Below, piece after piece: positions 3,991-28,612 of a stretch of 32,000 nucleotides of DNA; position 1 is the first letter of the stretch, and the number at the start of each line of letters is the position of its first letter. This DNA is from Methylorubrum extorquens (lineage in GTDB: Bacteria; Pseudomonadota; Alphaproteobacteria; Rhizobiales; Beijerinckiaceae), in assembly GCA_900234795.1 (NCBI GenBank), contig LT962688.1, positions 2,160,001 to 2,192,000 on the forward strand, written 5' to 3'. The position numbers were made by a program, and so were the translations under genes. The notes beneath the pieces were generated by a model that saw only the letters and a list, made by a program, of their open reading frames with translations, did no database searches and was not told the DNA's origin.

Positions 3991-4314
3991 ATGGCGGCGA
4001 CCCCGCGCGAGATCAGGCTGACGGAAGAGCGCCGGCGCCTCGACGTGATCTGGGAGGATGGCACGGCCTCCCGCCTCACGGCCGCGACGCTTCGTGCCCA
4101 CAGCCGCAGCGCCGAGACCGTGCGTGCCGGGATTGACGGGCTCCCCCCCGCGCTGCCGCACGACATCGCGATCACCGACGTCGTGCCGGTCGGCGCCTAC
4201 GCTGTGAACCTCGTCTTCTCCGACGGGCACGACCGCGGGATCTTCCCCTGGTCCTACCTGCGCGCGCTCGGCGACGACACGAGCCCGTGCGCGGCCGACC
4301 GCGCGGCAGCGTGA
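3991..4314 (+). CDS. DUF971 protein (gamma-butyrobetaine hydroxylase-like N-terminal domain family)
   Basis: 107 aa. GGAGGA Shine-Dalgarno at 3978-3983. The pattern L-x-V-x-W-x-DG-x-x-S-x-L-x-A-x-x-LR-x-x-S-x-SAE ... Y-A-V-x-L-x-F-SDGH-x-x-GI-F-x-W-x-YLR is the DUF971 signature as I recall it. Confidence 0.8.
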   Translation: MAATPREIRLTEERRRLDVIWEDGTASRLTAATLRAHSRSAETVRAGIDGLPPALPHDIAITDVVPVGAYAVNLVFSDGHDRGIFPWSYLRALGDDTSPCAADRAAA

Positions 4315-4325
4315 GGGAGACGGCG

Positions 4326-6074
4326 ATGAGCGCAGCGCAAGACGCGATTCAGGACGCGACCTCGGAGGTCGCCTGCGACGTGCTGGTGATCGGCGGCGGC
4401 ACCGCCGGGCCGATGGCGGCGCTGAAGGCCAAGCTGCGCAACCCGGCGGCCCGGGTGATCTTGCTGGAGAAAGCCAACGTCAAGCGCTCGGGCGCGATCA
4501 GCATGGGCATGGACGGGCTCAACAACGCCGTCATTCCCGGCTACGCCACGCCGGAGCAGTACACCAAGGAAATCACCATCGCGAACGACGGCATCTGCGA
4601 TCAGGCGCCGGTCTACAAATATGCCGAAAACTGCTTCGAGATCATCCAGGAACTCGACCGTTTCGGCATCCGCTTCCAGCGCGACGGCAACGGCGATTAC
4701 GACGTCAAGAAGGTGCATCATCTCGGCACCTACGTGCTGCCGATGCCCAACGGCGACACCGTCAAGAAGGCGCTCTACCGGCAATTGCGCAAGGCGCAGG
4801 TGCTGATCTCGAACCGCTTCATGGCGACCCGGCTTCTCAACGCGCCCGACGGCGCGGTGGCCGGGGCAGTGGCGGTCAATACCCGCACCGCCGAGTTCCT
4901 GGTGATCCGCGCCAAGGCGGTGATCCTCTGCCTCGGGGCGGCCGGGCGGCTCGGCCTGCCGCATTCGGGCTATCTGTGGGGCACCTACGAGAACGCCGCC
5001 AATTCCGGCGACGGCTATTCGATGGCCTACCACGCGGGGGCCGGGCTCGCGAACCTCGAATGCTTTCAGATCAACCCGCTGATCAAGGACTATAACGGCC
5101 CCGCCTGCGCCTACGTCGCCGGGCCGTTCGGCGCCTATACAGCCAACAGCGAGGGCAACCGCTTCATCGAGTGCGACTACTGGTCGGGCCAGATGATGCA
5201 GGAATTCTACAACGAACTCTCGAGCGGCAAGGGCCCGGTCTTCCTCAAGCTCGACCATCTCCACGCCGACACGGTCTCGGAGATCGAGACGATCCTGCAC
5301 AAGGTCGAGCGGCCCTCGCGCGGACGCTTCCACGAGAACCGCGGTACCGATTACCGCCACCGTATGGTCGAGATGCACATCTCGGAGGTGGGTTTCTGCT
5401 CCGGCCACAGCGCGTCGGGCGTGTTCGTCGACGAATTCGCCCGCACCACCGTGCCGGGCCTGTACTCGGCCGGCGACATGGCCAACGTCCCCCACAACTA
5501 CATGCTCGGCGCCTTCACCAACGGGGCGGTGGCGGGTGAGCACGCGATCGACCATGCGGGCGCGATCGACCTGCCTGAGATCGATGCCGAGGCGGTGGCG
5601 CGCGAGCGCGAGCGGGTGCTGGCGCCGACGCGGCGCGCGGACGGCATTCCCCCGAACCAGATCGAGTACAAGACCCGCCGCTTCGTCAACGACTACCTGC
5701 AGCCGCCCAAGGTCACGGCGAAGATGGAGATCGGGCAGCGGCGCTTTGCCGAGATCCGCGAGGATCTGGAGACGCGGATGGTCGCCCGCGACAGCCACGA
5801 GCTGATGCGGGCGCTGGAGGCGTCCTCGATCCTCGACTGCGCCGAGATGGCCGCCCACGCCTCGCTCTACCGCACCGAGAGCCGCTGGGGCCTCTACCAC
5901 AACCGCACAGACTACCCCGAGAAGAACGACGCGGAGTGGTTCTGCCACACGATCCTGCGGAAGGTGGAGGGCCGCATGGTCAGCGAGAAGCGGCCGATCA
6001 CGCCGTACATCGTGCCGATCGAGGCGGACGAGCGCGGCGCCTACGACCGCCAGCGTGTCCGCAAGCAGGCTTGA
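4326..6074 (+). CDS. FAD-dependent flavoprotein of the fumarate reductase/succinate dehydrogenase superfamily, adenylylsulfate-reductase alpha (AprA)-like
   Basis: ATG at 4326 after GGGAGA (4314-4319). 582 aa. N-terminal dinucleotide fold DVLVIGGGTAGPMAA; later LGAAGRLG, SGDGYSMAYHAGA, GLYSAGDMA. Length and overall pattern resemble AprA-type proteins more than SdhA/FrdA (recollection, not a search). An adjacent small ferredoxin is in the AprB-like position. Confidence 0.8.
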   Translation: MSAAQDAIQDATSEVACDVLVIGGGTAGPMAALKAKLRNPAARVILLEKANVKRSGAISMGMDGLNNAVIPGYATPEQYTKEITIANDGICDQAPVYKYAENCFEIIQELDRFGIRFQRDGNGDYDVKKVHHLGTYVLPMPNGDTVKKALYRQLRKAQVLISNRFMATRLLNAPDGAVAGAVAVNTRTAEFLVIRAKAVILCLGAAGRLGLPHSGYLWGTYENAANSGDGYSMAYHAGAGLANLECFQINPLIKDYNGPACAYVAGPFGAYTANSEGNRFIECDYWSGQMMQEFYNELSSGKGPVFLKLDHLHADTVSEIETILHKVERPSRGRFHENRGTDYRHRMVEMHISEVGFCSGHSASGVFVDEFARTTVPGLYSAGDMANVPHNYMLGAFTNGAVAGEHAIDHAGAIDLPEIDAEAVARERERVLAPTRRADGIPPNQIEYKTRRFVNDYLQPPKVTAKMEIGQRRFAEIREDLETRMVARDSHELMRALEASSILDCAEMAAHASLYRTESRWGLYHNRTDYPEKNDAEWFCHTILRKVEGRMVSEKRPITPYIVPIEADERGAYDRQRVRKQA

Positions 6075-6088
6075 GACCGGAGACATCC

Positions 6089-6322
6089 ATGCCCCTCGCC
6101 CACCAGCCCAGTGCGGTCCCGGTCACCGTGGACCCGGAAAAATGCATCGCCGACAAGGGCTGCACGGTCTGCGTCGATGTCTGCCCCCTCGACGTCCTGC
6201 GGATCAGCGACCTCACCGGCAAGGCCTACATGAAGTACGACGAGTGCTGGTACTGCATGCCCTGCGAGACCGACTGCCCGACCGGCGCCGTCACCGTCCA
6301 GATCCCCTACCTGCTGCGGTGA
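6089..6322 (+). CDS. 2x[4Fe-4S] ferredoxin (short AprB-like partner)
   Basis: ATG 6089, 14 nt after the flavoprotein stop, preceded by GGAGAC. 77 aa with two cluster motifs: C-x6-C-x2-C-x3-CP (CIADKGCTVCVDVCP) and C-x2-C-x2-C-x3-CP (CWYCMPCETDCP). Confidence 0.85.
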   Translation: MPLAHQPSAVPVTVDPEKCIADKGCTVCVDVCPLDVLRISDLTGKAYMKYDECWYCMPCETDCPTGAVTVQIPYLLR

Positions 6323-6327
6323 GCCCG

Positions 6328-7299
6328 ATGCCCATCACCGATCCGTTCGAGGATTTTGGCGAAGTTGCCGAGATCGCCCGCGGCCTCGACGATGCCGACC
6401 CGGCGGTGCGCCGCGTCGCGGTCCTCGCGCTCGCCGAGACCGCCGACCCGGAGGCCGTGCCCCCGCTCGCCCGGGCCGCCGCCGATCCCGATCCGGACGT
6501 GCGGCGGCAGGCGGCCCTCTCGCTCGGCGGCTTCGACGGACCCGAGACGGCGGCGGCGCTGGCGGGCGCGCTCACCGATCCCGACCGTTCGGTCGCGACG
6601 GCGGCGGCCGAGAGCCTGACGGAGTTGAAGGATGCCCGCGCCGGCGATCCGCTGCTGCCGCTCGCCGGGCACGGCGATGCCTTCGTGCGGGCGGCGGCCC
6701 TGCGGGCGCTTCGGGGGCTGAGGCTGCCCGCCGCGCTCGGGCCCGCGGTTGCGGCGCTCGGCGATCCGGAGCCGGCGGTGCGGGCGCAGGGCGTCGGCGT
6801 CATCGCCTACCTGAAGCGGGAGGAGGCGCTGCCCTCGCTCATCGCCGCGACCCGCGACGCGGATGCCGAGGTGCGCCGCGCCGCGGTCGGCGGCCTCGCC
6901 TTCGCCCGCCACGCCAGCGCCGTCGAGGCGATCGCGGCAGCCCTGCACGACGCCGAGTGGAGCGTGCGCGAGACCGCCGCCGAGGCCCTTGGACGGGCCG
7001 GGACGGCCGAAGGTGCCGAAGCGAGCGGCGAGGTGCTGATCGCGGCGCTCGGCGACGCCACATGGCAGGTTCGCCAGAAGGCCCTGCGCAGCCTCGGGCG
7101 GCTCAGGTTCCGCCGCGCCGTGCCGACGGTGCTGGCGGCGTTGTCTGAGGAGATGGCGTCCCTGCGCAAGGAGGCGGCGGCCGCGCTCGGCGAGATCGCC
7201 GACCCGGCCGCGCAAGCGGGTCTGGAGGGCATCGCGAACGATCCCGATCCGGACGTGCGCAAGACCGCGCGCTGGGCGCTGGCGCGGCTGGCGGCGTAG
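6328..7299 (+). CDS. HEAT-repeat (PBS-lyase HEAT-like) protein
   Basis: ATG 6328, 5 nt after the ferredoxin stop. The longer track ORF from 6055 reads across the ferredoxin gene out of frame. About 10 repeats of D-P/A-x-x-x-V-R-x-x-A-x-x-A-L-G/A, e.g. DPAVRRVAVLALAE, DPDVRRQAALSLGG, DAEVRRAAVGGLAF, DPDVRKTARWALAR. Confidence 0.8.
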   Translation: MPITDPFEDFGEVAEIARGLDDADPAVRRVAVLALAETADPEAVPPLARAAADPDPDVRRQAALSLGGFDGPETAAALAGALTDPDRSVATAAAESLTELKDARAGDPLLPLAGHGDAFVRAAALRALRGLRLPAALGPAVAALGDPEPAVRAQGVGVIAYLKREEALPSLIAATRDADAEVRRAAVGGLAFARHASAVEAIAAALHDAEWSVRETAAEALGRAGTAEGAEASGEVLIAALGDATWQVRQKALRSLGRLRFRRAVPTVLAALSEEMASLRKEAAAALGEIADPAAQAGLEGIANDPDPDVRKTARWALARLAA

Positions 7300-7443
7300 A
7301 GAGCGCCTCGCTCCGGTCGCAGGGCCGGAGCCGGGCTCATACCAAATCCGGTTGATTCCTTCGGGATGGCGGATTTGGGCTTCGGTGGGATCCCATCGCG
7401 CTGGCGCGATGGGTGCCCTCCTCAAGCGCCGCGCGGGCTGACC

Positions 7444-7480
7444 GATACGGTTCCCGCTTTGATCAAGCGGAAACCGTATC
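7444..7480. terminator. Strong hairpin at the convergent junction between the HEAT-repeat gene and the Crp/Fnr gene (possible bidirectional terminator)
   Basis: GATACGGTTCCCGCTT (7444-7459), loop TGATC, AAGCGGAAACCGTATC (7465-7480): 16-nt arms with one mismatch. It overlaps the regulator's stop codon (7479-7481). There is no U-tract on either side, so intrinsic-terminator function is uncertain. Confidence 0.4.
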
Positions 7481-8243
7481 ACCCCTCGGTCAGGACGATC
7501 TCCTGCAGCCGCCCGGGCCGAACCAGGCGGATATGCGTCGCATCGACGGACACGATGCCCTCGCGCTGGAACCGCTTGAGCATCATCGTCACCCATTGCC
7601 GGGTCGAGCCGACGAGGGCCGCGAGTTCGTCGTGGGTGATGCGGCGGCGGATGATCACCGTGCCGTTCTCAGGGGTCCCGTAGAGGTCGCCGAGATTGAG
7701 AAGAAGCTGCGCCAGCCGCTCGATCACCGAGCGTGTGCCGAGCATCTGCGCCATGGCGGTGTAGCAGCGCCCCTTGGCCTCCAGCGCGGCGATGAGGCAG
7801 AGCGCGAAGCCCGGCATCTGGCGGATCAGCCCGCGCAGGGTCGCGCTCGACAGCACGGTGACGCGCACCGGCTCGATCGCCACGCCCGACCATTGATGGC
7901 AGCCGCCGCCATAGATGCTCGGGCCGCCGATGAAGTGGCCCGGCGTCCAGTAGGCCAGCGTCACCTGCCGGCCCGACGGCCCCGAATAGAACACCCGGAC
8001 CCGCCCCTCCTCGATCAGGAAGATGCCCTCGTGCGGCGCCCCTTGGGTAAAGACGCTCTCGCCGGGCGCGAGGCTCACCGTGCGGCCGGCGGCGCGCACC
8101 CGAGCGCTCTCGGCGGGGGTGAGCCCGTCGAGGAAGCCCGCTCCGTCGTCGAGCCCCTCGACCGTCTCGCTGAGGAACAGCGCACTGGCGATCAGGGGCG
8201 CCGGACGGCGGGGTTCGGACAGGGCGAGCGGTGCCGACGACAT
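7479..8243 (-). CDS. Crp/Fnr-family transcriptional regulator
   Basis: ORF 7479-8378; I favour the ATG at 8243 (MSSAPLAL...), with 8291 as an alternative. cNMP-binding-like beta-roll (GESVFTQGAPHEGIFLIEEGRVRVF). C-terminal HTH (ITHDELAALVGSTRQWVTMMLKRFQREGIV). Confidence 0.85.
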   Translation of the reverse strand: MSSAPLALSEPRRPAPLIASALFLSETVEGLDDGAGFLDGLTPAESARVRAAGRTVSLAPGESVFTQGAPHEGIFLIEEGRVRVFYSGPSGRQVTLAYWTPGHFIGGPSIYGGGCHQWSGVAIEPVRVTVLSSATLRGLIRQMPGFALCLIAALEAKGRCYTAMAQMLGTRSVIERLAQLLLNLGDLYGTPENGTVIIRRRITHDELAALVGSTRQWVTMMLKRFQREGIVSVDATHIRLVRPGRLQEIVLTEG

Positions 8244-8343
8244 GGGAACCTCGGGAAAACGTTCGGGTGCGAGGCCCAGAGCATGACCCATCTCCCGCTC
8301 TCGATTATCGACGCGGCCTGCTTGAGAGCAATTCCAAATCGGG

Positions 8344-8353
8344 CTGTCGACAG
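8344..8353. promoter_or_regulatory. 10-bp perfect palindrome CTGTCGACAG in the divergent regulator/ABC-transporter control region
   Basis: Read directly, in a lower-GC intergenic stretch (8244-8562). It does not match TTGAT-N4-ATCAA or TGTGA-N6-TCACA, so it is only a candidate operator. Confidence 0.2.
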
Positions 8354-8562
8354 AACACATTCTTCTCCTGTCAAACATTTCGCGAGAAGAGATTTTCTTC
8401 GGCTCAAGAACAGTTGCGCATCGATCCAGAAACTCGACTTTCCAACGAAATTAATTGCTCGCCGCAACGGCTGTCCGAACGGCACATCCACGAGGTCGCC
8501 GCCCTCGCGAGCGGCCGACGCACTCGCCTCGACGGACTTGCCTCGCCTCACGGAGCCTCACG

Positions 8563-10005
8563 GTGACACAGCATATCCCGCTCACCCGCCGCCTCGCAGC
8601 GCTCCTCCTGACCGCCACGGTACTCGGCGCGGCGGGCTCCGGGGCAGCCCGGTCCGAGACGATCCGGGTCGCCGTCGGCACGCAGGACACCACGATCAAT
8701 TGCGCCACCGGCGGCCTGCTGATCCGCGAGTTGAAGCTCCTAGAGAAGTTCCTGCCCCGCGACGGGCGCTACAAGGACGCGACCTACGACATCCAGTGGC
8801 GCAACTTCACCAGCGGCGCGCCGCTCACCAACGAGATGGTGGCGGGCAAGCTCGATCTCGGGGCGATGGCCGACTTTCCCGGCTCGCTCAACGGCCACGC
8901 CTTCGCCAAGGCCGGGCGCCGCTCGCTGTTCATCTCGGTGCTCTCGGGCAGCCTGCACGGCAGCGGCAACGGCGTCGTCGTGCCGAAGGAATCCCCCGTG
9001 CAGTCGTTCGCCGAACTCAAGGGCAAGACGATCTCGGTGCCGTTCGCCTCGACCGCGCACGGGCTGCTCTTGCGGGCGGTGAAGGCGCAGGGATGGGAGC
9101 CCGGCCGCGACGTCACCATCATCACCCAGGCCCCGGAGGTGGCGGGCGCCGCGCTGCTCGCCAACAAGATCGAGGCACATGCCGACTTCGTGCCCTTCGC
9201 CGAGCTGTTCCCCTGGCGCGGCTTCGCCCGCAAGATCTACGATGGCGCCCAGGCCGACGCCCCGACCTTCCACGGCGCGCTCGCCGATGCCGACTATGCC
9301 GAGAAGTACCCGGAGATCGTTACCGCCTACCTGCGCGCGGCACTCGAAGCGGACCGGTTGATCGCCGCCGAGCCGGAAAAGTATTCCGAACTCATCGAGC
9401 GGGTGACGGGGATCGAGGCGGAGGTCGCCTACCTGTTCCACGGGCCGCTCGGCCTGCAGACCCGCGACGTGACCTGGAAGCCGGCCTACCGGCAGGCGGT
9501 AAAGACCTCCTTCGAGACGCTCAAGCTGCTGAAGAAGGCCGATTCCGACATCGACCTCGACCGCTTCGTCGATGACCGCTTCATCCGCGCGGCGGCGGCG
9601 CAGGCCGGTCTCGACTACGAGGCGCGGCTCAGGGACGAGGCGCCGCTGCCGCTCGCCGCGCAGGACAGCGCAACGGGCAAGCCGATCACTGATCCGTCCC
9701 GCGTGGCGCAACTCTGGATCCGCGGCGAGGACAAGGTCCGCCCCTACGCCTCGCCGGAAGCGGCGTTCGCGGCGCTCGCCGAGCTGGAAGGCCAGGGGCG
9801 CGAGGCCCGCGCCGTCTACGCCCAGGATCGGGGCAACGGGATCAAGCTGTTCGCCACCCAGGCCTGGTACGTGCGCGACGCGCAAGGGCATCTGAGCGCC
9901 TTCCTGCTCAAGGGCGACGCACAGGCCCACGCCGCGGCGAAAGGGGGCGACGTGCTCGATTTCGCCGCCGCGCGGAGCGGCCACGCGCGGCTCTCGGCCC
10001 GATGA
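8563..10005 (+). CDS. Periplasmic ABC-transporter substrate-binding protein (NitT/TauT, NMT1/SsuA-like) with an extra ~135-aa C-terminal domain
   Basis: GTG start at 8563 gives VTQHIPLTRRLAALLLTATVLGAAGSGAARS (signal peptide). The earlier part of ORF 8455-10005 is Arg/Pro-rich junk. The SBP body ends near DRFVDDRFIRAA (~nt 9600). The rest is an additional domain (see findings). Confidence 0.85.
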   Translation: MTQHIPLTRRLAALLLTATVLGAAGSGAARSETIRVAVGTQDTTINCATGGLLIRELKLLEKFLPRDGRYKDATYDIQWRNFTSGAPLTNEMVAGKLDLGAMADFPGSLNGHAFAKAGRRSLFISVLSGSLHGSGNGVVVPKESPVQSFAELKGKTISVPFASTAHGLLLRAVKAQGWEPGRDVTIITQAPEVAGAALLANKIEAHADFVPFAELFPWRGFARKIYDGAQADAPTFHGALADADYAEKYPEIVTAYLRAALEADRLIAAEPEKYSELIERVTGIEAEVAYLFHGPLGLQTRDVTWKPAYRQAVKTSFETLKLLKKADSDIDLDRFVDDRFIRAAAAQAGLDYEARLRDEAPLPLAAQDSATGKPITDPSRVAQLWIRGEDKVRPYASPEAAFAALAELEGQGREARAVYAQDRGNGIKLFATQAWYVRDAQGHLSAFLLKGDAQAHAAAKGGDVLDFAAARSGHARLSAR

Positions 10006-10889
10006 GCCCCTTGATGAACCCCTTGATGAGCCCGTCGGTGAGCGCCTCCGGAATCGAGACGGCCGCCCCGGTCCGCGTGCCGCGCGGGCGGCCGGTCCGG
10101 TTTGCGCGACCATCGACGCTCGGGCGCTTGGCGCTGCGCGGCGTCGCCCTGGCCCTGAGCCTGCTCGCTTGGCACCTCGCGGCGAGCAGCCGGCTCGATC
10201 TCGGCCTCGTCACCTTCCGCAACGTGCCGACTCCGGCGGCCGCCGCGCAGGCGGCCTGGGCGCTGGTCCACGCCCCCGCGCTGCCGACCCATCTGGGCGC
10301 CAGCCTCGCCCGGGTGCTGTCGGGCTTCCTCGCCGCTTTGGGCGTGGGCGTCGCCCTCGGCCTCGCCATCGGCCGGTCGCGGCTCGCCCGCGACCTGCTG
10401 CTGCCGCCGCTCGAAGTGCTGCGCCCGATCCCGGCGGTGGCCTGGATCCCGCTGGCGATCCTGATGTTCCCGTCCTCCGAGGTCTCGATGGCCTTCATCA
10501 CCTTCACGGGCGCGCTGTTCCCGATCCTGCTCAACACCGTGCACGGGGTGGAATCGGTGCATCCCCGGCTTGTCGCCGCCGCCCGCAGCCTCGGCGCGGG
10601 CGATGCCGCGATCCTGCGCGAGGTGATCTTGCCGGGCGCCGCGCCCAGCATCGTGACGGGGGCGGCGATCGGCATGGGCACGGCGTGGTTCTGCCTCGTG
10701 ACCGCCGAGATGATCTCCGGCCAGTACGGGATTGGCTACTTCACCTGGGAATCCTATACACTGCAGAACTACGACGACATCGTCGTCGGCATGCTGCTGA
10801 TCGGCCTCCTCGGGATGGGATCCAGCCTCGTCGTGCGCTGGCTCGGCGACCGGGCGACACCCTGGGTCGGCGCGGGAGGCCAGCGATGA
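10002..10889 (+). CDS. ABC-transporter permease (NitT/TauT family)
   Basis: ATG overlaps the SBP stop (ATGA at 10002-10005). Multi-TM protein with an EAA-like loop (AARSLGAGDAAILREVILPGAAPSIVTG). In-frame alternative starts at 10014, 10026 and 10038. Confidence 0.9.
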   Translation: MSPLMNPLMSPSVSASGIETAAPVRVPRGRPVRFARPSTLGRLALRGVALALSLLAWHLAASSRLDLGLVTFRNVPTPAAAAQAAWALVHAPALPTHLGASLARVLSGFLAALGVGVALGLAIGRSRLARDLLLPPLEVLRPIPAVAWIPLAILMFPSSEVSMAFITFTGALFPILLNTVHGVESVHPRLVAAARSLGAGDAAILREVILPGAAPSIVTGAAIGMGTAWFCLVTAEMISGQYGIGYFTWESYTLQNYDDIVVGMLLIGLLGMGSSLVVRWLGDRATPWVGAGGQR

Positions 10890-11767
10890 GCGCGGGAATG
10901 GCACCGGTCCAGGCCGGCCCTCTCACCGGCACCGATCCTCTTGCCGACACCGATCCCTTTGCCGACGGTCACGTCGCCATCCGGGATGGGGCGATCCGGC
11001 TCGGTCGGGGCGATGCGGCGTTCGACGTGGTCGAGAACATCAGCTTCGACATCCCAGGCCGCCAGTTCGTCTGCATCCTCGGGCCCTCGGGCTGCGGAAA
11101 GTCGACCCTGCTCGGGGCGGTGGCCGGGCACCTCGCCCTGTCGCGCGGCAGCGTCAGCCTCGACGGGCGGGCGATCGCCGGGCCGCATCCCGACCGCGGC
11201 ATCGTCTTCCAGCAGCACACCCTGTTCCCCTGGCTCAGCGTGATCGACAACGTCGCCTTCGGCATGAAGATGAAGGGCGTCGGCCGCAGCGAGCGCCGGG
11301 AACGGGCCCGGGCGCTGCTGGCGCAGGTCGGGCTGTCCGACTTCGCCGAGCGCTATCCGGCCGAATTGTCGGGGGGCATGCAGCAGCGGGTGGAGATCGC
11401 CCGCGCGCTGATCAACCGGCCTCGGGTCCTGCTGATGGACGAGCCGTTCGGGGCACTCGATGCGCAGACGCGGCTGACGATGCAGGAACTGCTGCTCGAC
11501 ATCTGGACGCGCCACCGCACCACGATCCTGTTCGTGACGCACGACATCGACGAGGCCCTGTTCCTGGCGGATCGGCTCGTCGTGATGACGCCGCGGCCGG
11601 GGCGCATCCTCGACGACATTCCCCTTGATTTCGGGCGCCCGCGGGACCGCGGCCTGATCACCGATCCGCGCTTCACGGCGATCAAGCAGCGCTGCCTCGC
11701 GCTCCTTCACAGCGATCCCGGCCATGTGCCGCTCGCCCGCTTGAGCCCGATCGGAGTTCCGGCATGA
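10886..11767 (+). CDS. ABC-transporter ATP-binding protein (NitT/TauT family)
   Basis: ATGA overlap with the permease stop (10886-10889). Walker A GPSGCGKST, signature LSGGMQQR, Walker B VLLMDEPFGALD, H-loop VTHD. Confidence 0.92.
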   Translation: MSAGMAPVQAGPLTGTDPLADTDPFADGHVAIRDGAIRLGRGDAAFDVVENISFDIPGRQFVCILGPSGCGKSTLLGAVAGHLALSRGSVSLDGRAIAGPHPDRGIVFQQHTLFPWLSVIDNVAFGMKMKGVGRSERRERARALLAQVGLSDFAERYPAELSGGMQQRVEIARALINRPRVLLMDEPFGALDAQTRLTMQELLLDIWTRHRTTILFVTHDIDEALFLADRLVVMTPRPGRILDDIPLDFGRPRDRGLITDPRFTAIKQRCLALLHSDPGHVPLARLSPIGVPA

Positions 11768-12420
11768 CCTCGAATGCCCCCTCGTCGCCGACCATCGCGT
11801 ACTATTTCAGCTTCCTCTCGCTGTGGTCCTATGTCGGCAGTCGCGCCTTCCGCGACCTCGCCGAACGGAACGGCGCGCGGATCGTCTACAAGCCGGTCGA
11901 TCTGATGGCAGTCTTCGCCGCCGGCGGCGGCAAGCCCGTCAAGGAGAGGCCCCTGCAGCGGCAGGCCTACCGCCTCGTCGAAATGCAGCGCTGGCGCCGC
12001 ATCCGCGGCATCCCGCTGGTGCTGCACCCGAAATTCTACCCGGCCGACCCCTCCCTCGCCCACCGGGTCCTGCTGGCCGCCCTCGACGAGGGCAGCGCGG
12101 TCGCCGACTTCGTCCATGCCGGCCTCAGCGCCGTCTGGGCGGACGAACGCGACATCGCCGATCCCGGCACGATCATCCGGCTCGCCGATGCGGCCGGGCT
12201 CGACGGGAAACGCCTGCTCGCCCGAGCCGACGAGCCGGCGTTCCGCGAGGCCGAGGCGGCTCTGACCCGCGAGGCGATCGGGCGGCAGGTGTTCGGGGCG
12301 CCGTTCTATGTCTACCGCGATGAGCCGTTCTGGGGTCAGGACCGGCTCGACCTGCTGGAGGCGGCGATCTCGGGCTCGGACGCGCCGATCCCGCTGCCGG
12401 ACCTCTCCGCTTCCGGCTGA
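11764..12420 (+). CDS. DsbA-family thioredoxin-fold protein, 2-hydroxychromene-2-carboxylate isomerase-like
   Basis: ATGA overlap with the ATPase stop (11764-11767). IAYYFSFLSLWSYVGS near the N-terminus and GAPFYVYRDEPFWGQDRLDLLE near the C-terminus are characteristic of HCCA-isomerase/DsbA-like proteins (recollection). Confidence 0.8.
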   Translation: MTSNAPSSPTIAYYFSFLSLWSYVGSRAFRDLAERNGARIVYKPVDLMAVFAAGGGKPVKERPLQRQAYRLVEMQRWRRIRGIPLVLHPKFYPADPSLAHRVLLAALDEGSAVADFVHAGLSAVWADERDIADPGTIIRLADAAGLDGKRLLARADEPAFREAEAALTREAIGRQVFGAPFYVYRDEPFWGQDRLDLLEAAISGSDAPIPLPDLSASG

Positions 12421-14788: not shown

Positions 14789-14793
14789 CGCGC

Positions 14794-17553: not shown

Positions 17554-17554
17554 C

Positions 17555-18595: not shown

Positions 18596-18643
18596 GATCG
18601 TTCTTTTATTTGCGAGATCGAGATAAGATCTATTCATATCCTT

Positions 18644-18658
18644 TTGTATTATGTACAA
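18644..18658. promoter_or_regulatory. Palindrome TTGTA-N5-TACAA in the AT-rich divergent control region (LysR-type T-N11-A-like box candidate)
   Basis: Read directly: cttTTGTAttatgTACAAgtc. The 145-nt divergent intergenic region (18596-18740) is very AT-rich against a GC-rich background. Confidence 0.3.
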
Positions 18659-18740
18659 GTCATGCTAATAGGCAAGACATCTTCGGGCGACAAGGCTAAA
18701 GCCCTGAGCAAATCGGTGATGGAGGACGAGGATCTTGGCG

Positions 18741-21438: not shown

Positions 21439-22662
21439 ATGTCGCAGATCGATGCAGGCTGGGGCGCCGGCCCGAGTGGACGCTACGAGGAACTCGCGGG
21501 TCGCTTCCGGCCGGTCTTCGGCGAGATCCGTTCCACCGCGGTCGCGCGGGACGCCGAGCGGCGCTTGCCGCATGCCGAACTCGGTTGGCTGAAGGAAGCG
21601 GGCTTCACCACCCTGCGTCTGCCCGCCGAGTCGGGCGGGCATGGCGCGAGCCTGCCCGAACTCTTCAACCTGCTGATCGAGCTGTCGGCGGCCGATTCCA
21701 ACGTTACCAATGCGCTGCGCGCGCATTTCGGCTTCACCGAGGACGTGCTGACCGCCGCCTCGGCGGAATGGCGTACGCGATGGATCGCCCGGCTCGCCGC
21801 GGGCGAGACGGTCGGCAGCGGCGTGTCCGAGACGGGGCCGGCCAAGGTCGGGCAGTTCGACACGGTGGTGCGCCGACGCGGCGACGAGCGAGTGGTGGAT
21901 GGCCGGAAATTCTACACGACCGGCGCGCTCTTCGCCGACTGGATCCACCTTTCGGCCCAGGACGAGGACGGCGCGTCCGTGGTCGCCGCGGTGCCGACGC
22001 GAGCGCCCGGCGTCACGATCGAGGACGATTGGGATGGCTTCGGGCAGGCCCTGACCGCGAGCGGCACCGCCCGCTTCGAGGGCGTCGTGCTGGCACCGGA
22101 GCTGATCAAGCCGGAGACGGTGCGCTTTCCCTACGCCATGGCCTTCTTCCAGCTCGTGCATCTGGCAACGCTCGCCGGCATCGCTCGGGCGGCGGCCGAG
22201 GATGCGGCGCGGCTGGTAGCGGCGCGCACCCGGGTCTACAGCCACGGGAATGCCGACCGCACGGCGGACGATCCGCAAGTTCTGGCTGTGGTGGGCCGCG
22301 TGCGCGGCAATGCCTATGCAGCCGGTGCCCTCGTGCTGAAGGCGGCCGAGGCGGTGCAACGCGCGGCGGAGGCGGTGCAGCTGGGCGGGCGCGAAGCGGC
22401 GGAGCCGATCACGGCCCTCGCCGATGTCGAGGTCAACCAAGCCGTCGCCGTGGTGACCAACCTCGTATTGGAGGCGACCACGGTGCTGTTCGACGCCCTC
22501 GGTGCGTCCGCCGTGAAGGCCGAGGACGGCCTTGATCGCTACTGGCGCAACGCACGCACCATCGCCTCACACAACCCGCGGATCTACCGCGAGCGCAGCG
22601 TCGGCGCCTTCGCGGTCAACGGCACGCGTCCACCCAGGGAGTTCCGCGTCGGTACGGCCTAA
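21439..22662 (+). CDS. Acyl-CoA-dehydrogenase-fold oxidoreductase, SfnB/DszC-like (sulfur-acquisition type)
   Basis: ATG 21439 preceded by GAGGGA. 407 aa. ERRLPHAELGWLKEAGFTTLRLPAESGG, FYTTGALFADWI, DRYWRNARTIASHNPRIYRERSVG. The C-terminal motif is what I recall from SfnB-family proteins. Confidence 0.8.
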   Translation: MSQIDAGWGAGPSGRYEELAGRFRPVFGEIRSTAVARDAERRLPHAELGWLKEAGFTTLRLPAESGGHGASLPELFNLLIELSAADSNVTNALRAHFGFTEDVLTAASAEWRTRWIARLAAGETVGSGVSETGPAKVGQFDTVVRRRGDERVVDGRKFYTTGALFADWIHLSAQDEDGASVVAAVPTRAPGVTIEDDWDGFGQALTASGTARFEGVVLAPELIKPETVRFPYAMAFFQLVHLATLAGIARAAAEDAARLVAARTRVYSHGNADRTADDPQVLAVVGRVRGNAYAAGALVLKAAEAVQRAAEAVQLGGREAAEPITALADVEVNQAVAVVTNLVLEATTVLFDALGASAVKAEDGLDRYWRNARTIASHNPRIYRERSVGAFAVNGTRPPREFRVGTA

Positions 22663-22804: not shown

Positions 22805-22820
22805 GTTCTTTAAAAAGAAC
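22805..22820. promoter_or_regulatory. Perfect 16-bp palindrome GTTCTTTAAAAAGAAC followed by TTGACT (22828-22833), upstream of groES; candidate operator plus -35
   Basis: Read directly. The half-site AAAGAAC recurs at 22835-22841. No CIRCE element (TTAGCACTC-N9-GAGTGCTAA) is present between 22663 and 22924. Confidence 0.3.
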
Positions 22821-22924: not shown

Positions 22925-23215
22925 ATGGCGTTTCGACCCCTGCACGACCGCGTGCTGCTGCGCCGCATTGAGAGCGACGAGCGGACGAAGGGTGGCATCA
23001 TCATCCCCGACACCGCGAAGGAGAAGCCGCAGGAGGGCGAGGTCGTGGCCGTCGGACCCGGTGCCCGCGACGACCAGGGCCGCGTCACCGCGCCGGACGT
23101 CAAGACCGGCGACCGCGTGCTGTTCGGCAAGTGGTCCGGCACGGAGATCAAGGTCGACGGCCAAGACCTCCTGATCCTCAAGGAATCCGACATTCTCGGC
23201 GTGATCACCGCCTGA
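22925..23215 (+). CDS. groES: Co-chaperonin GroES
   Basis: [49 protein letters not shown]...: canonical GroES, 96 aa. Confidence 0.95.
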
Positions 23216-23226
23216 GCAAGCTCTGA

Positions 23227-24876
<1,650 letters not shown>

Positions 24877-24885
24877 TCGCCTGAA

Positions 24886-24918: not shown

Positions 24919-25258
24919 CCTGGCTGCCGACAGTATTGATGTCCCCTTCCCCATCCTAAGGTGCCGCGAGGCGATCCCTAACGATCCTCAGGATCCCACG
25001 CGGTCCCGAGAGCCGTATCCGACCTGATTGCATCAGGCCGGCGTCTCTAGGTCGTTGTTGTGACGCGCATTCTTTCGACGAGCCGGTGGCCACTTCGTCG
25101 GAATGCGCTCTAGAGCCCCCTTCGAGGCCTGCCTTGTGCATCGGTACCTCGTGGATGGGGCGAAGGATTGGATCAAGGCGATTCCGGCCGGGTGTCCCCG
25201 CCGGCACCTTCCGTCACGGTCCATCCGCCGGATGGGCCCGCTCCGATGAGATCGACCG

Positions 25259-25531
25259 ATGACTGCTTCGCAGGACTTCCGCCGCAGGATCGAGGGCTAC
25301 AGTCTCACGACGGCCGAGATCCTCTATCACCTGCCCGACTTCCCGCATCTCCTTCAAACCTTCGTCTGGCAGAACCACGACCTGTTCCCGCAATTCCCGG
25401 AGCTGAAGCGGTTCCTCGACTTCTGGCAGGAGACGTTGGACGGCCCGCTGCACTCGGTCAGGGTGATGCATGCCCGCCTGATCCGGCCGACCGAACTCAA
25501 GGCGCTCTCGGCCGAGTTTCATCTGCACTGA
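25259..25531 (+). CDS. Usg-like family small protein (alphaproteobacterial Usg family)
   Basis: 90 aa. GYSLTTAEILYHLPDFPHLLQTFVWQNHDLFPQFPELKRFLDFWQETLDGPLHSVRVMH matches my recollection of the Usg-like family consensus. Confidence 0.8.
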   Translation: MTASQDFRRRIEGYSLTTAEILYHLPDFPHLLQTFVWQNHDLFPQFPELKRFLDFWQETLDGPLHSVRVMHARLIRPTELKALSAEFHLH

Positions 25532-25622
25532 AGGGCATACGGTACGGCGGGAACGATAATGCCCGGGCCGACCCGCGAAGAAAACGATGGTCCTCTGTGG
25601 CTATACGGAGGAGGACTGCATT

Positions 25623-25859
25623 CTAAAGTGATGATCTCGAGCCGAAATGTGTCGTCTTCGACTTGAGCGCGCGGCTGGATAGAAGGGATGACACTTCGAT
25701 CACGTTGCGGAGGAGGTAGACGATGCCGAACGGCTTGGCGACACGCATCTGCCCCTCGTCGGCCGAGGCCGGGCCCGCCACGAATCCAGCCAACGCAGCA
25801 CCCGCGCAGAGGGCGGCGGTTTGCCGGCGCGTGAGCAGGCCGCGTCGCTTGCCAGTCAT
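25623..25859 (-). pseudogene. Possible decayed N-terminal fragment of a periplasmic substrate-binding protein
   Basis: MTGKRRGLLTRRQTAALCAGAALAGFVAGPASADEGQMRVAKPFGIVYL... is a twin-arginine-like signal plus the first SBP beta-strand. It then degenerates into low-GC sequence with stops. No full-length frame can be reconstructed. Confidence 0.25.
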
Positions 25860-26094
25860 GTCGATCCCTGCTGTGACAATATATGGTCATCTAGCGGAGT
25901 TGTGCCGCAAGATTAATCAAACTTTTTGCCTCTTACGCAATGATGTTTCAGCGGAAATATACTGTTGAAGATAGCCAATTCAAAGCATAGCTATGACTGG
26001 CAGTCGCGTTTTGAGGAAAAATCATTACTCCCCCCGATCGGAAATTCGTCAATTGCGCGGTGCGCGATACGCCGCGTGGGGAGCGCCGCCCCCG

Positions 26095-26268
26095 TCAGGC
26101 CTCGTCGCGCATTCGGGCGTCCGGGATCCGGCTCGGCCAGCAGACGAGGTGGGGCGCGAGCCATTCGTGGCTCAGCATCGCGCCGGACGCGAGCGGCAGC
26201 GGCCCGGCTTCGGCAGGCAGCGCCGCGTTCCGCAGGAGCGTGACGAGCCAAGTGAAAAGCTGTCTCAT
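26095..26268 (-). CDS. Small hypothetical ORF (57 aa) translationally coupled to the oxygenase gene
   Basis: ATG 26268 overlaps the upstream stop (ATGA at 26265-26268). MRQLFTWLVTLLRNAALPAEAGPLPLASGAMLSHEWLAPHLVCWPSRIPDARMRDEA. GC-rich third positions. No recognisable family; could be a gene fragment. Confidence 0.3.
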   Translation of the reverse strand: MRQLFTWLVTLLRNAALPAEAGPLPLASGAMLSHEWLAPHLVCWPSRIPDARMRDEA

Positions 26269-27288
26269 GCGGCCTGCGCCTCGGCGATGAGCAGGTCGGC
26301 ATAGTGGGCTGCCGCCACGTCGGGATGCGAGCGCAGTCGACCCTTGAGGTAATTGCGGCCGACCTCGCGGAAGAGCGGGTTCTCCGGGTCGCTCGCCGCG
26401 CCCCGTGCCTGCTCCGCCAGCGCGGCGGGCAGATCGAGCAGCGGGACGGTGGCGTCGTGTCGCGCGCCGAGGAAGAAGGCGATGGAGAGCCGGTCCCGGC
26501 CTGCATCCGGCGTCACCACCCGGTGGATTGTGGCCCGCAGGTAGCCGTTCGAGGCGAGTTCCAGCAGTTCGCCGACATTGACCACGAAGGCCCCCTCGAC
26601 CGGTGCGACCGCGATCCAGCGGCCGTCGGCATCCTCGACCTCCAGGCCGCCTACGCCGTCCTGCACCAAGAGGGTGAGAAAGCCGCTGTCCTTGTGGGCG
26701 CCGACGCCCTGGTTGTCGCCGGTGGCCTCGCGGCCGGGATAGCGGATGATCTTGATGTGCTGGTTGGGTGCGCCGGCGTAGATCGGCGCGAAGACGTCGG
26801 TCTCCTGCCCAAGCGCCAGGGCGAAGGCCTGCAGCAGGCGGATGCCGATATCTGTGACCGCCTCCTGCCAGGCCAGGAGCCCGACCCGGAGCCCCGGCAG
26901 GGCGGCCGGCCACTGGTTCGGCCCCTGGGAGGCGGGTCCATGCCGGGAGGCCGGGTTCACGCGGCCGCGCCGCCCGCTCGGCGCTGATATCGAACTGCTC
27001 GCGCCAGTCGGCCCGCCCACGGGTGATCTCCTGGCCGGCCTCGGTGTAGCCTCGGAAATGGGGCGAGTTCACCATCGCGACCGCCCGCTTCTCCTCCGCC
27101 GGCAGGGCAAAGAAGTGCCGTGCCAGCGCCTGGACGCCGGCGATCTGCGAGGCCGGAATGCCGTGTCCGACGAGATAAAAGAAACCGGTCTCGCGGGCGG
27201 CCGTCCGCAGCTCCGCGAGGAAGGCGTCGCGCTCGCTCCCACCCGCATCGAGGCGGGCGAGATCGAGGATGGGGAGCGTGTGGCTCAT
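26265..27288 (-). pseudogene. 2-oxoglutarate/Fe(II)-dependent oxygenase (isopenicillin-N-synthase family) with one frameshift (as assembled)
   Basis: The N-terminal part (MSHTLPILDLARLDAGGSERDAFLAELRTAARETGFFYLVGHGIP...) is in the frame of track ORF 26095-27402. The C-terminal part (QGPNQWPAALPGLR...GVGAHKDSGFLTLLVQD...YLRATIHRV) is in ORF 26265-27020. The junction reads CGC CTC CCA GGG instead of CGC CTC CAG GGG CCG AAC CAG TGG: one extra C in a CCC run (plus-strand GGG 26927-26929). The 1024-nt span is 1023+1. The H-x-D...H iron triad (HKD, HRV) is present. Confidence 0.8.
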
Positions 27289-27289
27289 C

Positions 27290-28612
27290 TCAGGCCGCCC
27301 GCGCCAGCGTTCCGGCGGCGGCCAGCGCCTGATCGAGATCGGCCAGGATGTCGTCGATGTGCTCCAGCCCAACCGAGAGGCGCACGTAACCGTCGGTGAC
27401 ACCGGTGGCGCGCTGCTCGGCCGGCGTCAGCTGCGAGTGGGTGGTCGAGGCCGGGTGGATCGCAAGGCTGCGCACATCGCCGATATTGGCGACGTGGTAG
27501 AACAGCTTGAGCGCGTCAATGAAGCGGCGCCCGGCGGCGCGGCCCGCCGCCAGCTCGAACCCGACGAGGCCGCCATAGCCTCCCCTCAGGATGCGGTCGG
27601 CCCGCTCCCGCGCAGCGCCGGTTTGAGCGGAGGGATGGATCACGCGGGCGATCTCCGGCCGACGCCCGAGCCAGTCGGCGACCGCTTGCGCATTGCGGCT
27701 GTGGCGCTCGATCCGCAGGGGAAGCGTCTCGATCCCCTGGAGCGTCAGGAAGGCGTTGAGCGGCGAGACGGCGGGACCGAGATCGCGCAGGAGCCGCACC
27801 CGTGCCCGCAAGGCATAGGCGACCGGGCCGATCGGCCGCGCGGCCTCGGTCCAGACCGCGCCATGATAGCTCGGATCCGGCGTGTTCAGGGCGGGCTGGC
27901 GATCGGGATAGGCCGCCCAGTCGAAGCGCCCGCCGTCGACGATGGCTCCGCCGATGGCGATGCCGTGGCCGCCGAGATACTTCGTGGTCGAATAGACGAC
28001 GATTGCCGCGCCATGGTCGAGAGGCCGTGCCAACAGGGGCGCCGCGGTGTTGTCGACGATGAGCGGGATGCCGAGCGGCCGGCCGATCGCCGCCACCTCG
28101 GCGATGGGGAAGACCGTGAGCTTCGGGTTCGGCAGGGTCTCGGCGTAGTAGGCCCGCGTCCGCCCATCGGTCGCGCGGGAGAAATTGTCCGGGTCGGCGG
28201 GATCGACAAAGCGGACCTCGATGCCCTGCTCGGCCAGCGTGTGGGCGAACAGGTTCCATGTGCCGCCGTAGAGGTCGGTGGAGGAGACGATGTTGTCACC
28301 TGCCCGCGCGAGGTTCTGGACGCTCAGCGCGGAGGCCGCCTGACCGGAGGCGAGAGCCAGCGCGGCCGCGCCGCCCTCCAGCGCGGCGAGGCGCTGCTCC
28401 AGCACGTCGACGGTGGGATTGGTGACCCGGGTGTAGATGTTGCCGAGTTCCTTGAGCGCGAACAGGCTCTCCGCGTGATCGGTGTCGCGGAACTGGTAGG
28501 AGGTGGTCTGGTGGATCGGCACTGCGACCGATCCGGTCTGAGGATCGGCGCGCCAACCGGCATGGAGCGCGAGCGTTTCGGCGTAGACTGAAGCGGGCGT
28601 CTGGTCCGACAT
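27290..28612 (-). CDS. metY: O-acetylhomoserine sulfhydrylase / aminocarboxypropyltransferase (PLP-dependent, Cys/Met metabolism family)
   Basis: 440 aa. TLALHAGWRADPQTGSVAVPIHQTTSYQF, NPTVDVLEQRLAALEGG, the PLP-lysine region STTKYLGGHG, IHPASTTHSQL. GGGAG Shine-Dalgarno upstream of ATG 28612. The stop is 1 nt before the oxygenase start. Confidence 0.9.
   Translation of the reverse strand: MSDQTPASVYAETLALHAGWRADPQTGSVAVPIHQTTSYQFRDTDHAESLFALKELGNIYTRVTNPTVDVLEQRLAALEGGAAALALASGQAASALSVQNLARAGDNIVSSTDLYGGTWNLFAHTLAEQGIEVRFVDPADPDNFSRATDGRTRAYYAETLPNPKLTVFPIAEVAAIGRPLGIPLIVDNTAAPLLARPLDHGAAIVVYSTTKYLGGHGIAIGGAIVDGGRFDWAAYPDRQPALNTPDPSYHGAVWTEAARPIGPVAYALRARVRLLRDLGPAVSPLNAFLTLQGIETLPLRIERHSRNAQAVADWLGRRPEIARVIHPSAQTGAARERADRILRGGYGGLVGFELAAGRAAGRRFIDALKLFYHVANIGDVRSLAIHPASTTHSQLTPAEQRATGVTDGYVRLSVGLEHIDDILADLDQALAAAGTLARAA

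Follow-up and report, generated by a model that had tools for sequence, protein, structure and literature searches.

Positions 3991-28612 of a 32,000-nucleotide stretch of the Methylorubrum extorquens genome (GenBank assembly GCA_900234795.1, contig LT962688.1, positions 2,160,001 to 2,192,000; the whole stretch is called the window below) make up a real sulfur-handling neighbourhood, a variant of the organosulfur-scavenging type of gene cluster. The interval is chromosomal and non-mobile, and we consider it rather likely that it brings together separately conserved sulfur-handling modules with the roles proposed below. An earlier note, made from the sequence alone, had described it as a possible sulfur-starvation island, the ssu, msu, sfn and tau genes being co-regulated by sulfate limitation in Proteobacteria. 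The analysis places two very widespread gene sets without assigned function, a cassette built around an AprA-fold flavoprotein and the gene of a DUF3604-family protein, in a testable sulfur-oxyanion context; members of these families are currently annotated as 'fumarate reductase flavoprotein', 'HEAT repeat protein' or 'hypothetical protein'. Methylorubrum, rhizobia and Burkholderiaceae live in soils and on leaves, where the main pool of sulfur is organically bound, and to our knowledge few routes release sulfite from this pool.

The gene map is based on Pfam and NCBIfam scans and on the public gene calls in three assemblies, and third-position GC was used to tell real genes from overlapping open frames in this window of about 70% G+C. 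The window is 99.87% identical to the 5.6-Mb chromosome of a sister genome (CP021054.1), and its 802-amino-acid (aa) protein has 98% identity to one from Methylorubrum extorquens. Three modules can be distinguished: the cassette (module 1, 3991-12420), a unit around a divergent promoter (module 2, 12336-21149), and the SfnB-like gene together with metY (module 3). Their features are listed below (SBP, substrate-binding protein; ABC, ATP-binding cassette; LLM, luciferase-like monooxygenase; ACAD, acyl-CoA dehydrogenase; Tat, twin-arginine translocation).

3991-4314, plus strand: DUF971 (GBBH-like_N) protein, 107 aa (Pfam PF06155, E 1e-22; same call in three assemblies)
4326-6074, plus strand: AprA-fold FAD flavoprotein, 582 aa (NF006131/PRK08275)
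6089-6322, plus strand: 2x[4Fe-4S] ferredoxin, 77 aa, eight Cys (Pfam Fer4_7 and Cys motifs)
6328-7299, plus strand: HEAT-repeat (PBS-lyase-like) protein, 323 aa (Pfam HEAT_2, E 5e-55)
7479-8243, minus strand: Crp/Fnr-family regulator, 254 aa (Pfam cNMP_binding and HTH_Crp_2)
8563-10005, plus strand: SBP1, TauA/SsuA-like periplasmic binding protein, 480 aa (SsuA_fam 109 bits, below cut-off)
10002-10889, plus strand: ABC permease, NitT/TauT type (Pfam BPD_transp_1)
10886-11767, plus strand: ABC ATPase, NitT/TauT type (Pfam ABC_tran)
11764-12420, plus strand: DsbA-fold protein, HCCA-isomerase/GST-kappa-like (Pfam DSBA, E 2e-34)
12336-13745, minus strand: pbuX-type NCS2 xanthine permease (TIGR03173, 500 bits, cut-off 414)
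13742-14788, minus strand: LLM-class flavin-dependent monooxygenase, 348 aa (Pfam Bac_luciferase, E 2e-61)
14794-15762, minus strand: SBP2, SsuA-family sulfonate-binding protein with Tat signal (TIGR01728, 167.3 bits, cut-off 163.5)
15759-16343, minus strand: mono-haem cytochrome c, 194 aa (Pfam Cytochrom_C, single CxxCH)
16333-17541, minus strand: SoxC-type molybdenum sulfite dehydrogenase with Tat signal (TIGR04555, 564.1 bits, cut-off 420)
17555-18595, minus strand: SBP3, NMT1_2-family binding protein (Pfam NMT1_2, E 3e-28)
18596-18740, between the SBP3 and DUF3604 genes: AT-rich divergent control region, 145 bp
18741-21149, plus strand: DUF3604-family protein ('PHP-like giant'), 802 aa (PF12228)
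21439-22662, plus strand: SfnB-like ACAD-fold flavoenzyme, 407 aa (TIGR04022, 281.3 bits, cut-off 430.9)
27290-28612, minus strand: metY, O-acetylhomoserine sulfhydrylase, 440 aa (TIGR01326, 582 bits, cut-off 495)

Sulfur-linked families account for about 12 of the 24 genes at 3991-28612 and for none of the approximately 17 genes in the ~18-kb flanks (gene calls of the sister genome), in agreement with the clustering first described. The enrichment appears real, though it would rest on few independent events because the genes form just four to five transcription units. Gene spacing defines four: DUF971-flavoprotein-ferredoxin-HEAT; SBP1-permease-ATPase-DsbA-like, joined by 4-nt overlaps; the minus-strand run SBP3-soxC-cytochrome c-SBP2-LLM-pbuX, with gaps of at most 13 nt or overlaps; and metY together with a 2-oxoglutarate (2OG) oxygenase gene. 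The earlier inventory was largely recovered: an AprA-like module, three NitT/TauT- or SsuA-type binding proteins, a single permease/ATPase pair (10002-11767), an SfnG/SsuD-like monooxygenase, an SfnB-like enzyme, a sulfite dehydrogenase with its cytochrome (15759-17541), metY, and the interspersed DUF3604 giant, DsbA-fold, HEAT and DUF971 proteins, 2OG oxygenase and groESL, of which groEL and the oxygenase gene are frame-shifted. A decayed fourth binding-protein fragment, also listed there, was not found by tblastn with the three SBPs as queries, and the 77-aa ferredoxin, the Crp/Fnr regulator (7479-8243) and pbuX (12336-13745) had been missed.

To follow the fate of the block in other genomes, conservation was sampled in 80 species loci centred on the DUF3604 gene, with 10-kb flanks. 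Two Methylobacterium species carry the uninterrupted order HEAT-Crp-SBP1-permease-ATPase-LLM-SBP2-cytochrome c-SoxC-SBP3-DUF3604-SfnB, without the DsbA-like gene and pbuX. In M. organophilum the order is SfnB-LLM-SBP2-SoxDC-SBP3-DUF3604; SoxDC-SBP3-DUF3604 is retained by M. segetis and M. jeotgali, and in one M. populi genome only SBP3-DUF3604 is left. Because groES/groEL, Usg and the 2OG oxygenase occur within 10 kb in none of the 80 loci, and the DsbA-like gene, pbuX and metY in one locus each, the 25-kb block is a lineage-specific assembly of smaller conserved units, not one co-inherited island; co-inheritance of the whole block, the comparative check proposed in the earlier note, was not observed, and only smaller modules recur. 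Guilt by association, which had been extended to all the unassigned genes of the block, therefore holds in part: DUF971, HEAT and DUF3604 have conserved linkage, and groESL, Usg, the 2OG oxygenase and the DsbA-like gene do not. The latter four, with pbuX, are lineage-specific passengers. No mark of a mobile island (tRNA gene, integrase, transposase or insertion sequence) was detected in the window, where repeats occur at chance level only, and the block contains no Rfam element or riboswitch.

A recurrent linkage is that between the cassette and the DUF3604 unit, which lie within 10 kb of each other in Methyloferula, Methylosinus, five Paraburkholderia and two Methylobacterium, with SoxCD positioned between them in two families. 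Since gene orders and transporters differ among the lineages that join them, this proximity seems to reflect repeated selection rather than shared ancestry of one arrangement. It is the strongest support for guilt by association, limited to these two modules.

The cassette consists of eight genes encoding the DUF971 protein, the AprA-fold flavoprotein, the ferredoxin, the HEAT protein, the Crp/Fnr regulator and the SBP1-permease-ATPase importer. The flavoprotein scores 1096.8 bits with NCBIfam NF006131 (cut-off 587), covering model positions 3-576 of 577. Its nearest solved relative, over the full length, is the alpha subunit of PAPS reductase (PAPS, 3'-phosphoadenosine 5'-phosphosulfate; 8a8o_A, E 4e-56), and the second nearest is dissimilatory AprA, the adenosine 5'-phosphosulfate (APS) reductase subunit (1jnr, E 6e-39). 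The ferredoxin, with eight Cys in two cluster motifs, has an AprB-like core and, being only 77 residues long, lacks the AprB tail; it is annotated at the same position in all homologous cassettes, and a 414-aa 'HEAT' open reading frame (ORF) is an artefact, an open frame running through the ferredoxin gene. The HEAT protein aligns with the C-terminal portion of the fusion model PRK13800 and is fused to the flavoprotein in the actinobacterium Tsukamurella. DUF971 accompanies the cassette in rhizobia, Ralstonia and Acinetobacter baumannii, and in Pseudanabaena Mrp/NBP35 substitutes for it. DUF971 has been tied to Fe-S cluster maintenance through cofitness with Mrp, BolA and YggX (bioRxiv 10.1101/072470); because of this link, with which the cyanobacterial exchange for Mrp/NBP35 agrees, it is probably a maintenance helper and no new catalytic step, and HEAT may, more tentatively, be a helper for the oxygen-sensitive ferredoxin subunit. 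The proposal that these two proteins carry out new steps of organosulfur utilisation thus loses ground to a role in Fe-S maturation or stabilisation.

The remaining cassette genes encode the regulation and uptake functions. The Crp/Fnr gene is divergent from the ABC operon, its product lacks the FNR-type Cys cluster, and its position is conserved in rhizobial, Methyloferula and cyanobacterial cassettes. SBP1, which has a C-terminal extension of about 120 aa with a weakly NosL-like tail, is closest among solved structures to E. coli TauA (6ssy, E 1e-16) and to SsuA (2x26). The permease and ATPase genes, the only such pair in the window, have taurine/SaoA/SsuC types (TauC/SsuC/TauB) as best NCBIfam matches.

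Homologous cassettes were found in 57 plasmid or chromid records, with flavoprotein identities of 55-83%. They recur in Methylobacterium, Mesorhizobium, Rhizobium, Bradyrhizobium, Cupriavidus, Ralstonia, Acidithiobacillus, A. baumannii, Pseudanabaena and Tsukamurella, that is, from Proteobacteria to Cyanobacteria and Actinobacteria, symbiosis plasmids included. In Pseudanabaena the genes of Mrp/NBP35, YeiH and a TauE/SafE 'sulfite exporter' come after the cassette. The cassette abuts ACAD, NtaA/DmoA-LLM and SsuA-ABC genes in Cupriavidus and tauABC-ssuD in Mesorhizobium 113-3-3, and flanks soxCD in Methylosinus and Methylobacterium. On the mobilisable plasmid pTcM1 of Acidithiobacillus caldus FdxA and a 1153-aa FAD-dependent oxidoreductase are encoded after the flavoprotein-ferredoxin-HEAT trio; they are candidates for the electron-transfer partners that other cassettes lack. 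A GGDEF-EAL gene lies a few kilobases upstream of the cassette both here and on Mesorhizobium pMLa, and in Methylocystis a distant GGDEF-EAL homologue stands directly upstream of SBP3-DUF3604; this recurrent neighbour could be a coincidence or could point to a c-di-GMP link.

In module 2, the SBP3 and DUF3604 genes diverge from the 145-bp region, and the two remain paired in Methylobacterium, Methyloferula, Methylocystis and Methylosinus. Since both the minus-strand run and the DUF3604 gene diverge from it, the region (18596-18740) is the common control region of at least seven genes. The -35/-10-like pair TTGCCT-16-CATAAT, identified by promoter scan for the minus-strand operon, coincides with conserved blocks in a seven-species Methylobacterium/Methylorubrum alignment. 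The same alignment revealed the conserved palindrome AGATCT-N4-AGATCT, located at 18626-18641 in the window, where the second half-site is degenerate; M. jeotgali has the symmetric variant ATATCT...GGATAT. With its place between the -10-like element and the start codon of SBP3, typical for a repressor, the palindrome is likely an operator.

Of the three NMT1/SsuA-type binding proteins, SBP2 alone passes the SsuA_fam cut-off (167.3 vs 163.5 bits). The SoxC subunit exceeds its equivalog cut-off and is encoded next to a cytochrome c with one CxxCH, as expected for a sulfite dehydrogenase, and SoxCD adjoins SBP3-DUF3604 in five of six Methylobacterium loci and in Methylosinus. The last gene of the minus-strand run, pbuX, overlaps the LLM gene by 4 nt and the convergent DsbA-like gene by 85 nt. 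It belongs to no sulfur family, is probably co-transcribed with the sulfur genes, and does not occur at this position in Methylobacterium sp. R2-1 or NPDC097213.

Alpha- and betaproteobacterial versions of the DUF3604 protein share 64-70% identity. Relatives turned up in 522 species genomes when one genome per species was scanned, and a profile search returned 4,445 representative clusters at E <= 1e-3. PF12228 was matched by all 67 diverse relatives examined (best E 1.3e-21) and by the window protein at 24.7 bits (gathering score 20.4). The protein has no signal peptide and is predicted to be cytosolic. An AlphaFold2 model on a diverse alignment (pLDDT 93.8, pTM 0.92; an earlier model with pLDDT 66 was set aside) predicts beta-sandwich domains flanking a central alpha/beta core, which carries the conserved residues Asp306, His308, Glu373, Asp383, His445 and Asp494. 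No solved analogue of the whole chain was found by Foldseek, which gave mostly beta-sandwich matches with TM <= 0.2, and profile searches against the PDB returned Ig-like domains only. Neither the protein nor its 67 relatives have a PHP match in Pfam; the GDLHVH motif and the conserved Asp, His and Glu residues are compatible with a PHP fold. A transporter gene is adjacent in 70 of the 80 loci. In 50 loci it encodes a DASS sodium-anion symporter, usually accompanied by a GntR regulator of the HutC-PhnF type, and an SBP3-like/NMT1 ABC system is found in 19. These features suggest that the protein is a metal-dependent enzyme of the cytosol whose substrate is a small imported anion. No literature on DUF3604 was found, in an incomplete literature coverage. 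In Burkholderia seminalis (CP072522.1), five consecutive LLM genes (one SsuD-like, 375 bits) and a receiver-less sigma-54 activator stand directly upstream of GntR-DASS-DUF3604, and B. aenigmatica has the same arrangement.

As for module 3, the SfnB-like gene lies next to the cluster in three other Methylobacterium species. A promoter-like site was found upstream of metY, and no S-adenosylmethionine riboswitch was detected at this gene.

Based on these observations, we propose the following scheme. In module 1, the TauA/SsuA-like ABC importer would bring in an organosulfur oxyanion, from which the AprA-fold FAD protein, with the ferredoxin feeding or draining electrons, would split off the sulfur group as sulfite through redox chemistry at flavin and Fe-S centres. 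HEAT and DUF971 would keep the Fe-S subunit assembled in an aerobe, and the local Crp/Fnr regulator would switch the module on. Module 2 would be driven from the 145-bp divergent region with its conserved palindromic putative operator. SBP2 and SBP3 would share the single permease/ATPase of module 1, the FMNH2-dependent LLM monooxygenase, served by a flavin reductase from another locus, would act on sulfonates or sulfones and free sulfite, and SoxCD would oxidise surplus sulfite in the periplasm. The DUF3604 protein, a predicted metal-dependent hydrolase-like enzyme, would act in the cytosol on a small imported anion; the gene that comes after it would supply the SfnB-like flavoenzyme, and MetY would fix sulfide into homocysteine. 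The need for an external reductase agrees with the earlier note: tblastn with Variovorax MsuE gave a best E of 0.71 in the window, and the scanned ORFs contain no FMN_red match. A flavin reductase hidden among the unassigned genes of the window, which that note had also considered, was sought by tblastn and by family scans without success.

Several observations weigh against this scheme. The flavoprotein fails the aprA models (TIGR02061, 145 bits, cut-off 641.75; PRK06854, 262 bits, cut-off 557), and the ferredoxin, at 35.6 bits over positions 2-65 of 132, misses the aprB cut-off. The catalytic residues of AprA, which we take from the AprAB structure papers to be Asn74, Arg265 and His398 (A. 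fulgidus numbering), were located using an A. fulgidus AprA sequence that agrees with the PDB alignment save for one residue. By this mapping the equivalents of Asn74 and His398 are retained in the flavoprotein, Arg265 is replaced by Leu252 ('INPLIKD'), invariant in seven cassette homologues, and Trp234 is replaced by an invariant Tyr221. The PAPS reductase of Methanothermococcus is an AprAB-type alpha2beta2 complex that forms sulfite via an FAD-N5 adduct and binds the PAPS 3'-phosphate by Lys120-Arg121-Ser122 (PMC10322725); in the flavoprotein these three residues correspond to Val-His-His, followed by a six-residue insertion. Since Arg265 is an invariant Leu and Lys-Arg-Ser is Val-His-His, flavin-N5 sulfite chemistry is not assured. 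The protein has the AprA fold, yet by its sequence it fails membership as an APS or PAPS reductase, and APS and PAPS were ruled out as substrates of the cassette by the residue evidence and the presence of its own importer.

Other points of the same kind concern the remaining enzymes and their context. The LLM protein is below the cut-offs of both of its best NCBIfam matches, SfnG (218 bits, cut-off 383) and SsuD (162 bits, cut-off 518). The SfnB-like protein misses the TIGR04022 cut-off (281.3 vs 430.9 bits), which is still by far its best ACAD subfamily. The nearest solved structures of SBP3 are the bicarbonate-binding CmpA and the nitrate-binding NrtA, not sulfonate binders. No other sulfur genes surround the cassette in Rhizobium BT04, Ralstonia, A. 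baumannii and Methylobacterium NMS14P, and most Burkholderiales DUF3604 loci have only GntR and DASS, with no recognisable sulfur gene within 10 kb. Expression, fitness or other experimental data on these genes were not found in the literature, the coverage of which was incomplete; the same limited search found nothing on sulfur limitation in Methylobacterium or on the cassette in rhizobia, cyanobacteria and Acinetobacter.

A more specific version of the scheme, which we regard as unlikely, is that the cassette is an oxygen-compatible descendant of APS reductase that frees sulfite directly from an imported pre-activated sulfur compound, with the DUF3604 protein as a second enzyme of the same sulfur-oxyanion pathway. 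If true, the candidate substrates would be a sulfate ester, a thiosulfonate or an S-sulfo compound, and ATP-dependent sulfate activation would be bypassed. Such a desulfurylation route would be distinct from those of oxygenases, sulfatases, Xsc, sulfo-lyases and glycyl-radical enzymes.

The label of sulfur starvation was examined through the regulatory elements. The window encodes no regulator of the CysB/Cbl/SsuR/SfnR type, its regulators being the Crp/Fnr and GGDEF-EAL proteins, and scans of it detected neither a sigma-54 -24/-12 promoter nor an FNR box. Comparison of 12-mers from ten intergenic regions revealed no shared operator, only GC-rich noise. A single operator for the whole cluster was therefore dropped: each of the two clear palindromes, AGATCT-N4-AGATCT and GTTCTTTAAAAAGAAC, occurs at one promoter only. 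Across taxa the regulators attached to the modules belong to the Crp/Fnr or GntR families, which are usually metabolite-sensing. The periplasmic sulfite dehydrogenase is easier to reconcile with an overflow of sulfite than with a scarcity of sulfur, which suggests that sulfite is possibly in excess. Because the window has no starvation regulator and no shared operator, the regulators are of the effector type and a periplasmic sulfite dehydrogenase is present, substrate-induced use of organosulfur compounds is favoured by these data or at least compatible with them. Sulfur-starvation control is unproven, and global regulators encoded elsewhere in the genome are possible.

In its full form this alternative holds that the genes serve substrate-induced dissimilation or detoxification of organosulfur compounds (for a methylotroph possibly methylated ones, for example dimethylsulfone or methanesulfonate), and not starvation scavenging, sulfite being a waste that SoxCD converts to sulfate. 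We consider it somewhat unlikely, even though the SoxC-type enzyme and its cytochrome lie inside the operon, the local regulators are probably effector-sensing (Crp/Fnr here, the GntR/HutC-PhnF type elsewhere), starvation-type regulators, sigma-54 promoters and shared operators are missing from the window, and a sulfite exporter stands beside the cyanobacterial cassette. The best match of the LLM protein, the dimethylsulfone monooxygenase SfnG, points the same way, but its score is well under the cut-off. Moreover, LLM, SfnB-like and SsuA-type proteins together are the classic make-up of scavenging clusters, the window encodes no carbon-processing enzymes for desulfonated skeletons, and most carriers of the cassette and of the DUF3604 gene are not methylotrophs. 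That the genes are chance neighbours with no meaning beyond their operons, the cassette and DUF3604 proteins acting on non-sulfur anions such as carboxylates or N and P oxyanions, is quite improbable: lack of conservation of the block beyond the genus (with only SBP3-DUF3604 in M. populi), loss of AprA Arg265, the many cassette and DUF3604 loci without nearby sulfur genes, DASS symporters and a CmpA/NrtA-like SBP3 that are not sulfur-specific, a GntR regulator resembling HutC, PhnF and PhnR, and translational coupling of pbuX within the operon would all be consistent with it, but it does not account for the adjacency of cassette and DUF3604 gene in unrelated Alpha- and Betaproteobacteria whose gene orders differ, the insertion of SoxCD between them in two families, the grouping of SBP1 with TauA and SsuA, the sulfite exporter adjoining the cyanobacterial cassette, or the LLM, ACAD or SsuA genes that abut the cassette in Cupriavidus and Mesorhizobium.

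The other genes of the interval and its borders are the following.

832-2868, plus strand: GGDEF-EAL protein
22925-23215, plus strand: groES (Pfam Cpn10)
23251-24876, plus strand: groEL, frame-shifted (Pfam Cpn60)
25259-25531, plus strand: Usg
26265-27288, minus strand: 2OG-Fe(II) oxygenase, split (Pfam DIOX_N and 2OG-FeII_Oxy)
29193-29792, minus strand: YkuD; an RND adaptor gene comes next

Relative to CP021054.1, where groEL is intact (540 aa), the groEL gene of the window has insertions of +2 (23853-23854) and +1 (24359) that leave about 505 bp out of frame. Short-read contigs stop just before this region, and the frame-shifts reflect either a real accessory-chaperonin pseudogene or assembly errors. 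The perfect 16-bp palindrome GTTCTTTAAAAAGAAC is located at 22805-22820, approximately 100 bp upstream of groES. HrcA control of the accessory groESL is improbable, as a CIRCE element is absent upstream of groES and from the rest of the window. In Mesorhizobium a degenerate CIRCE-like element accompanies the groES gene that follows tauABC-ssuD, which makes it probable that the two accessory groESL copies are regulated differently. In the 2OG oxygenase gene, a +1 insertion at 26929 separates the DIOX_N and 2OG-FeII_Oxy halves; this indel is common to independent Logan short-read assemblies (gap-free alignment), and in CP021054.1 the gene is intact (340 aa) and starts 1 nt after metY. The oxygenase is not of the TauD/AtsK type. 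The DsbA-fold protein has neither CxxC nor a signal peptide, and the first 4 nt of its gene are shared with the end of the ATPase gene.

A 78-aa ORF at 25623-25859 on the minus strand, also called in the sister genome, starts with a twin-arginine signal (RRGLLTRR...ASA) and ends abruptly; it has no family match in Pfam or NCBIfam and may be the remnant of a periplasmic protein. No other ORF is a candidate for the decayed binding-protein fragment of the earlier note. The G+C content dips to 0.57-0.62, from about 0.70, at 2000-4000 and 25000-26000, where there is little coding signal. They flank the cassette's left edge and the junction of groEL, Usg and the 2OG gene, and might represent seams of old recombination. 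Outside 1-4 kb and 25-26 kb the window shows no such dip. Contigs nearly identical to the window occur in at least 23 unrelated public sequencing runs (Logan; ERR28xxxxx, ERR2660582), which fits Methylorubrum as a frequent laboratory or reagent contaminant.

Compared with known systems, the window resembles ssuEADCB and tauABCD of E. coli and msuEDC, sfnECR and sfnFG of Pseudomonas in clustering SsuA/TauA-type binding proteins, a NitT/TauT ABC transporter, an LLM and an SfnB-like enzyme, and the combination typical of ssu/tau clusters, an SsuA/TauA-family SBP with a NitT/TauT permease and ATPase, is present. Unlike these clusters, it lacks an SsuE/MsuE flavin reductase, a CysB/Cbl/SsuR/SfnR regulator and a sigma-54 promoter, its LLM and SfnB-like proteins are below equivalog cut-offs, it has three binding proteins for one permease/ATPase pair, and it embeds a sulfite dehydrogenase, the AprA-fold cassette and the DUF3604 enzyme.

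The cassette itself pairs a fumarate-reductase-superfamily FAD alpha subunit with a 2x[4Fe-4S] beta subunit, as do AprAB and the PAPS reductase of M. thermolithotrophicus (8a8o). It differs from both in its aerobic hosts, in its obligatory HEAT and DUF971 (or Mrp) partners, in having its own ABC importer and regulator, in the absence of sat, cysC and qmo genes nearby, and in the replacements Arg265 to Leu and Trp234 to Tyr, the missing Lys-Arg-Ser, and scores far below the aprA/aprB cut-offs. A further parallel is provided by the 'AprAB-like' paralogues that the DiSCo authors noted in anaerobes, with tail-less AprB and located near sulfur-assimilation genes and nitT/tauT transporters, for which an assimilatory role was proposed (PMC8477390); the cassette likewise has a beta subunit without the AprB tail and nitT/tauT transporters in its vicinity.

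Similarly to SoxCD and SorAB of organosulfonate degraders, the window encodes a Tat-exported molybdopterin subunit with an adjacent c-type cytochrome among putative sulfite-generating enzymes; it differs from them in that other sox genes are absent, the cytochrome is mono-haem, and the pair lies inside an operon with SBPs and an LLM. Finally, the DUF3604 protein shares with the Pfam family the GDLH.H-type motif and the conserved Asp, His and Glu residues of its central domain. Unlike typical members, it represents a divergent subfamily (24.7 bits) with additional N- and C-terminal beta-sandwich domains and without a signal peptide, and its members are linked to either a DASS symporter or an ABC system of the NMT1 type.

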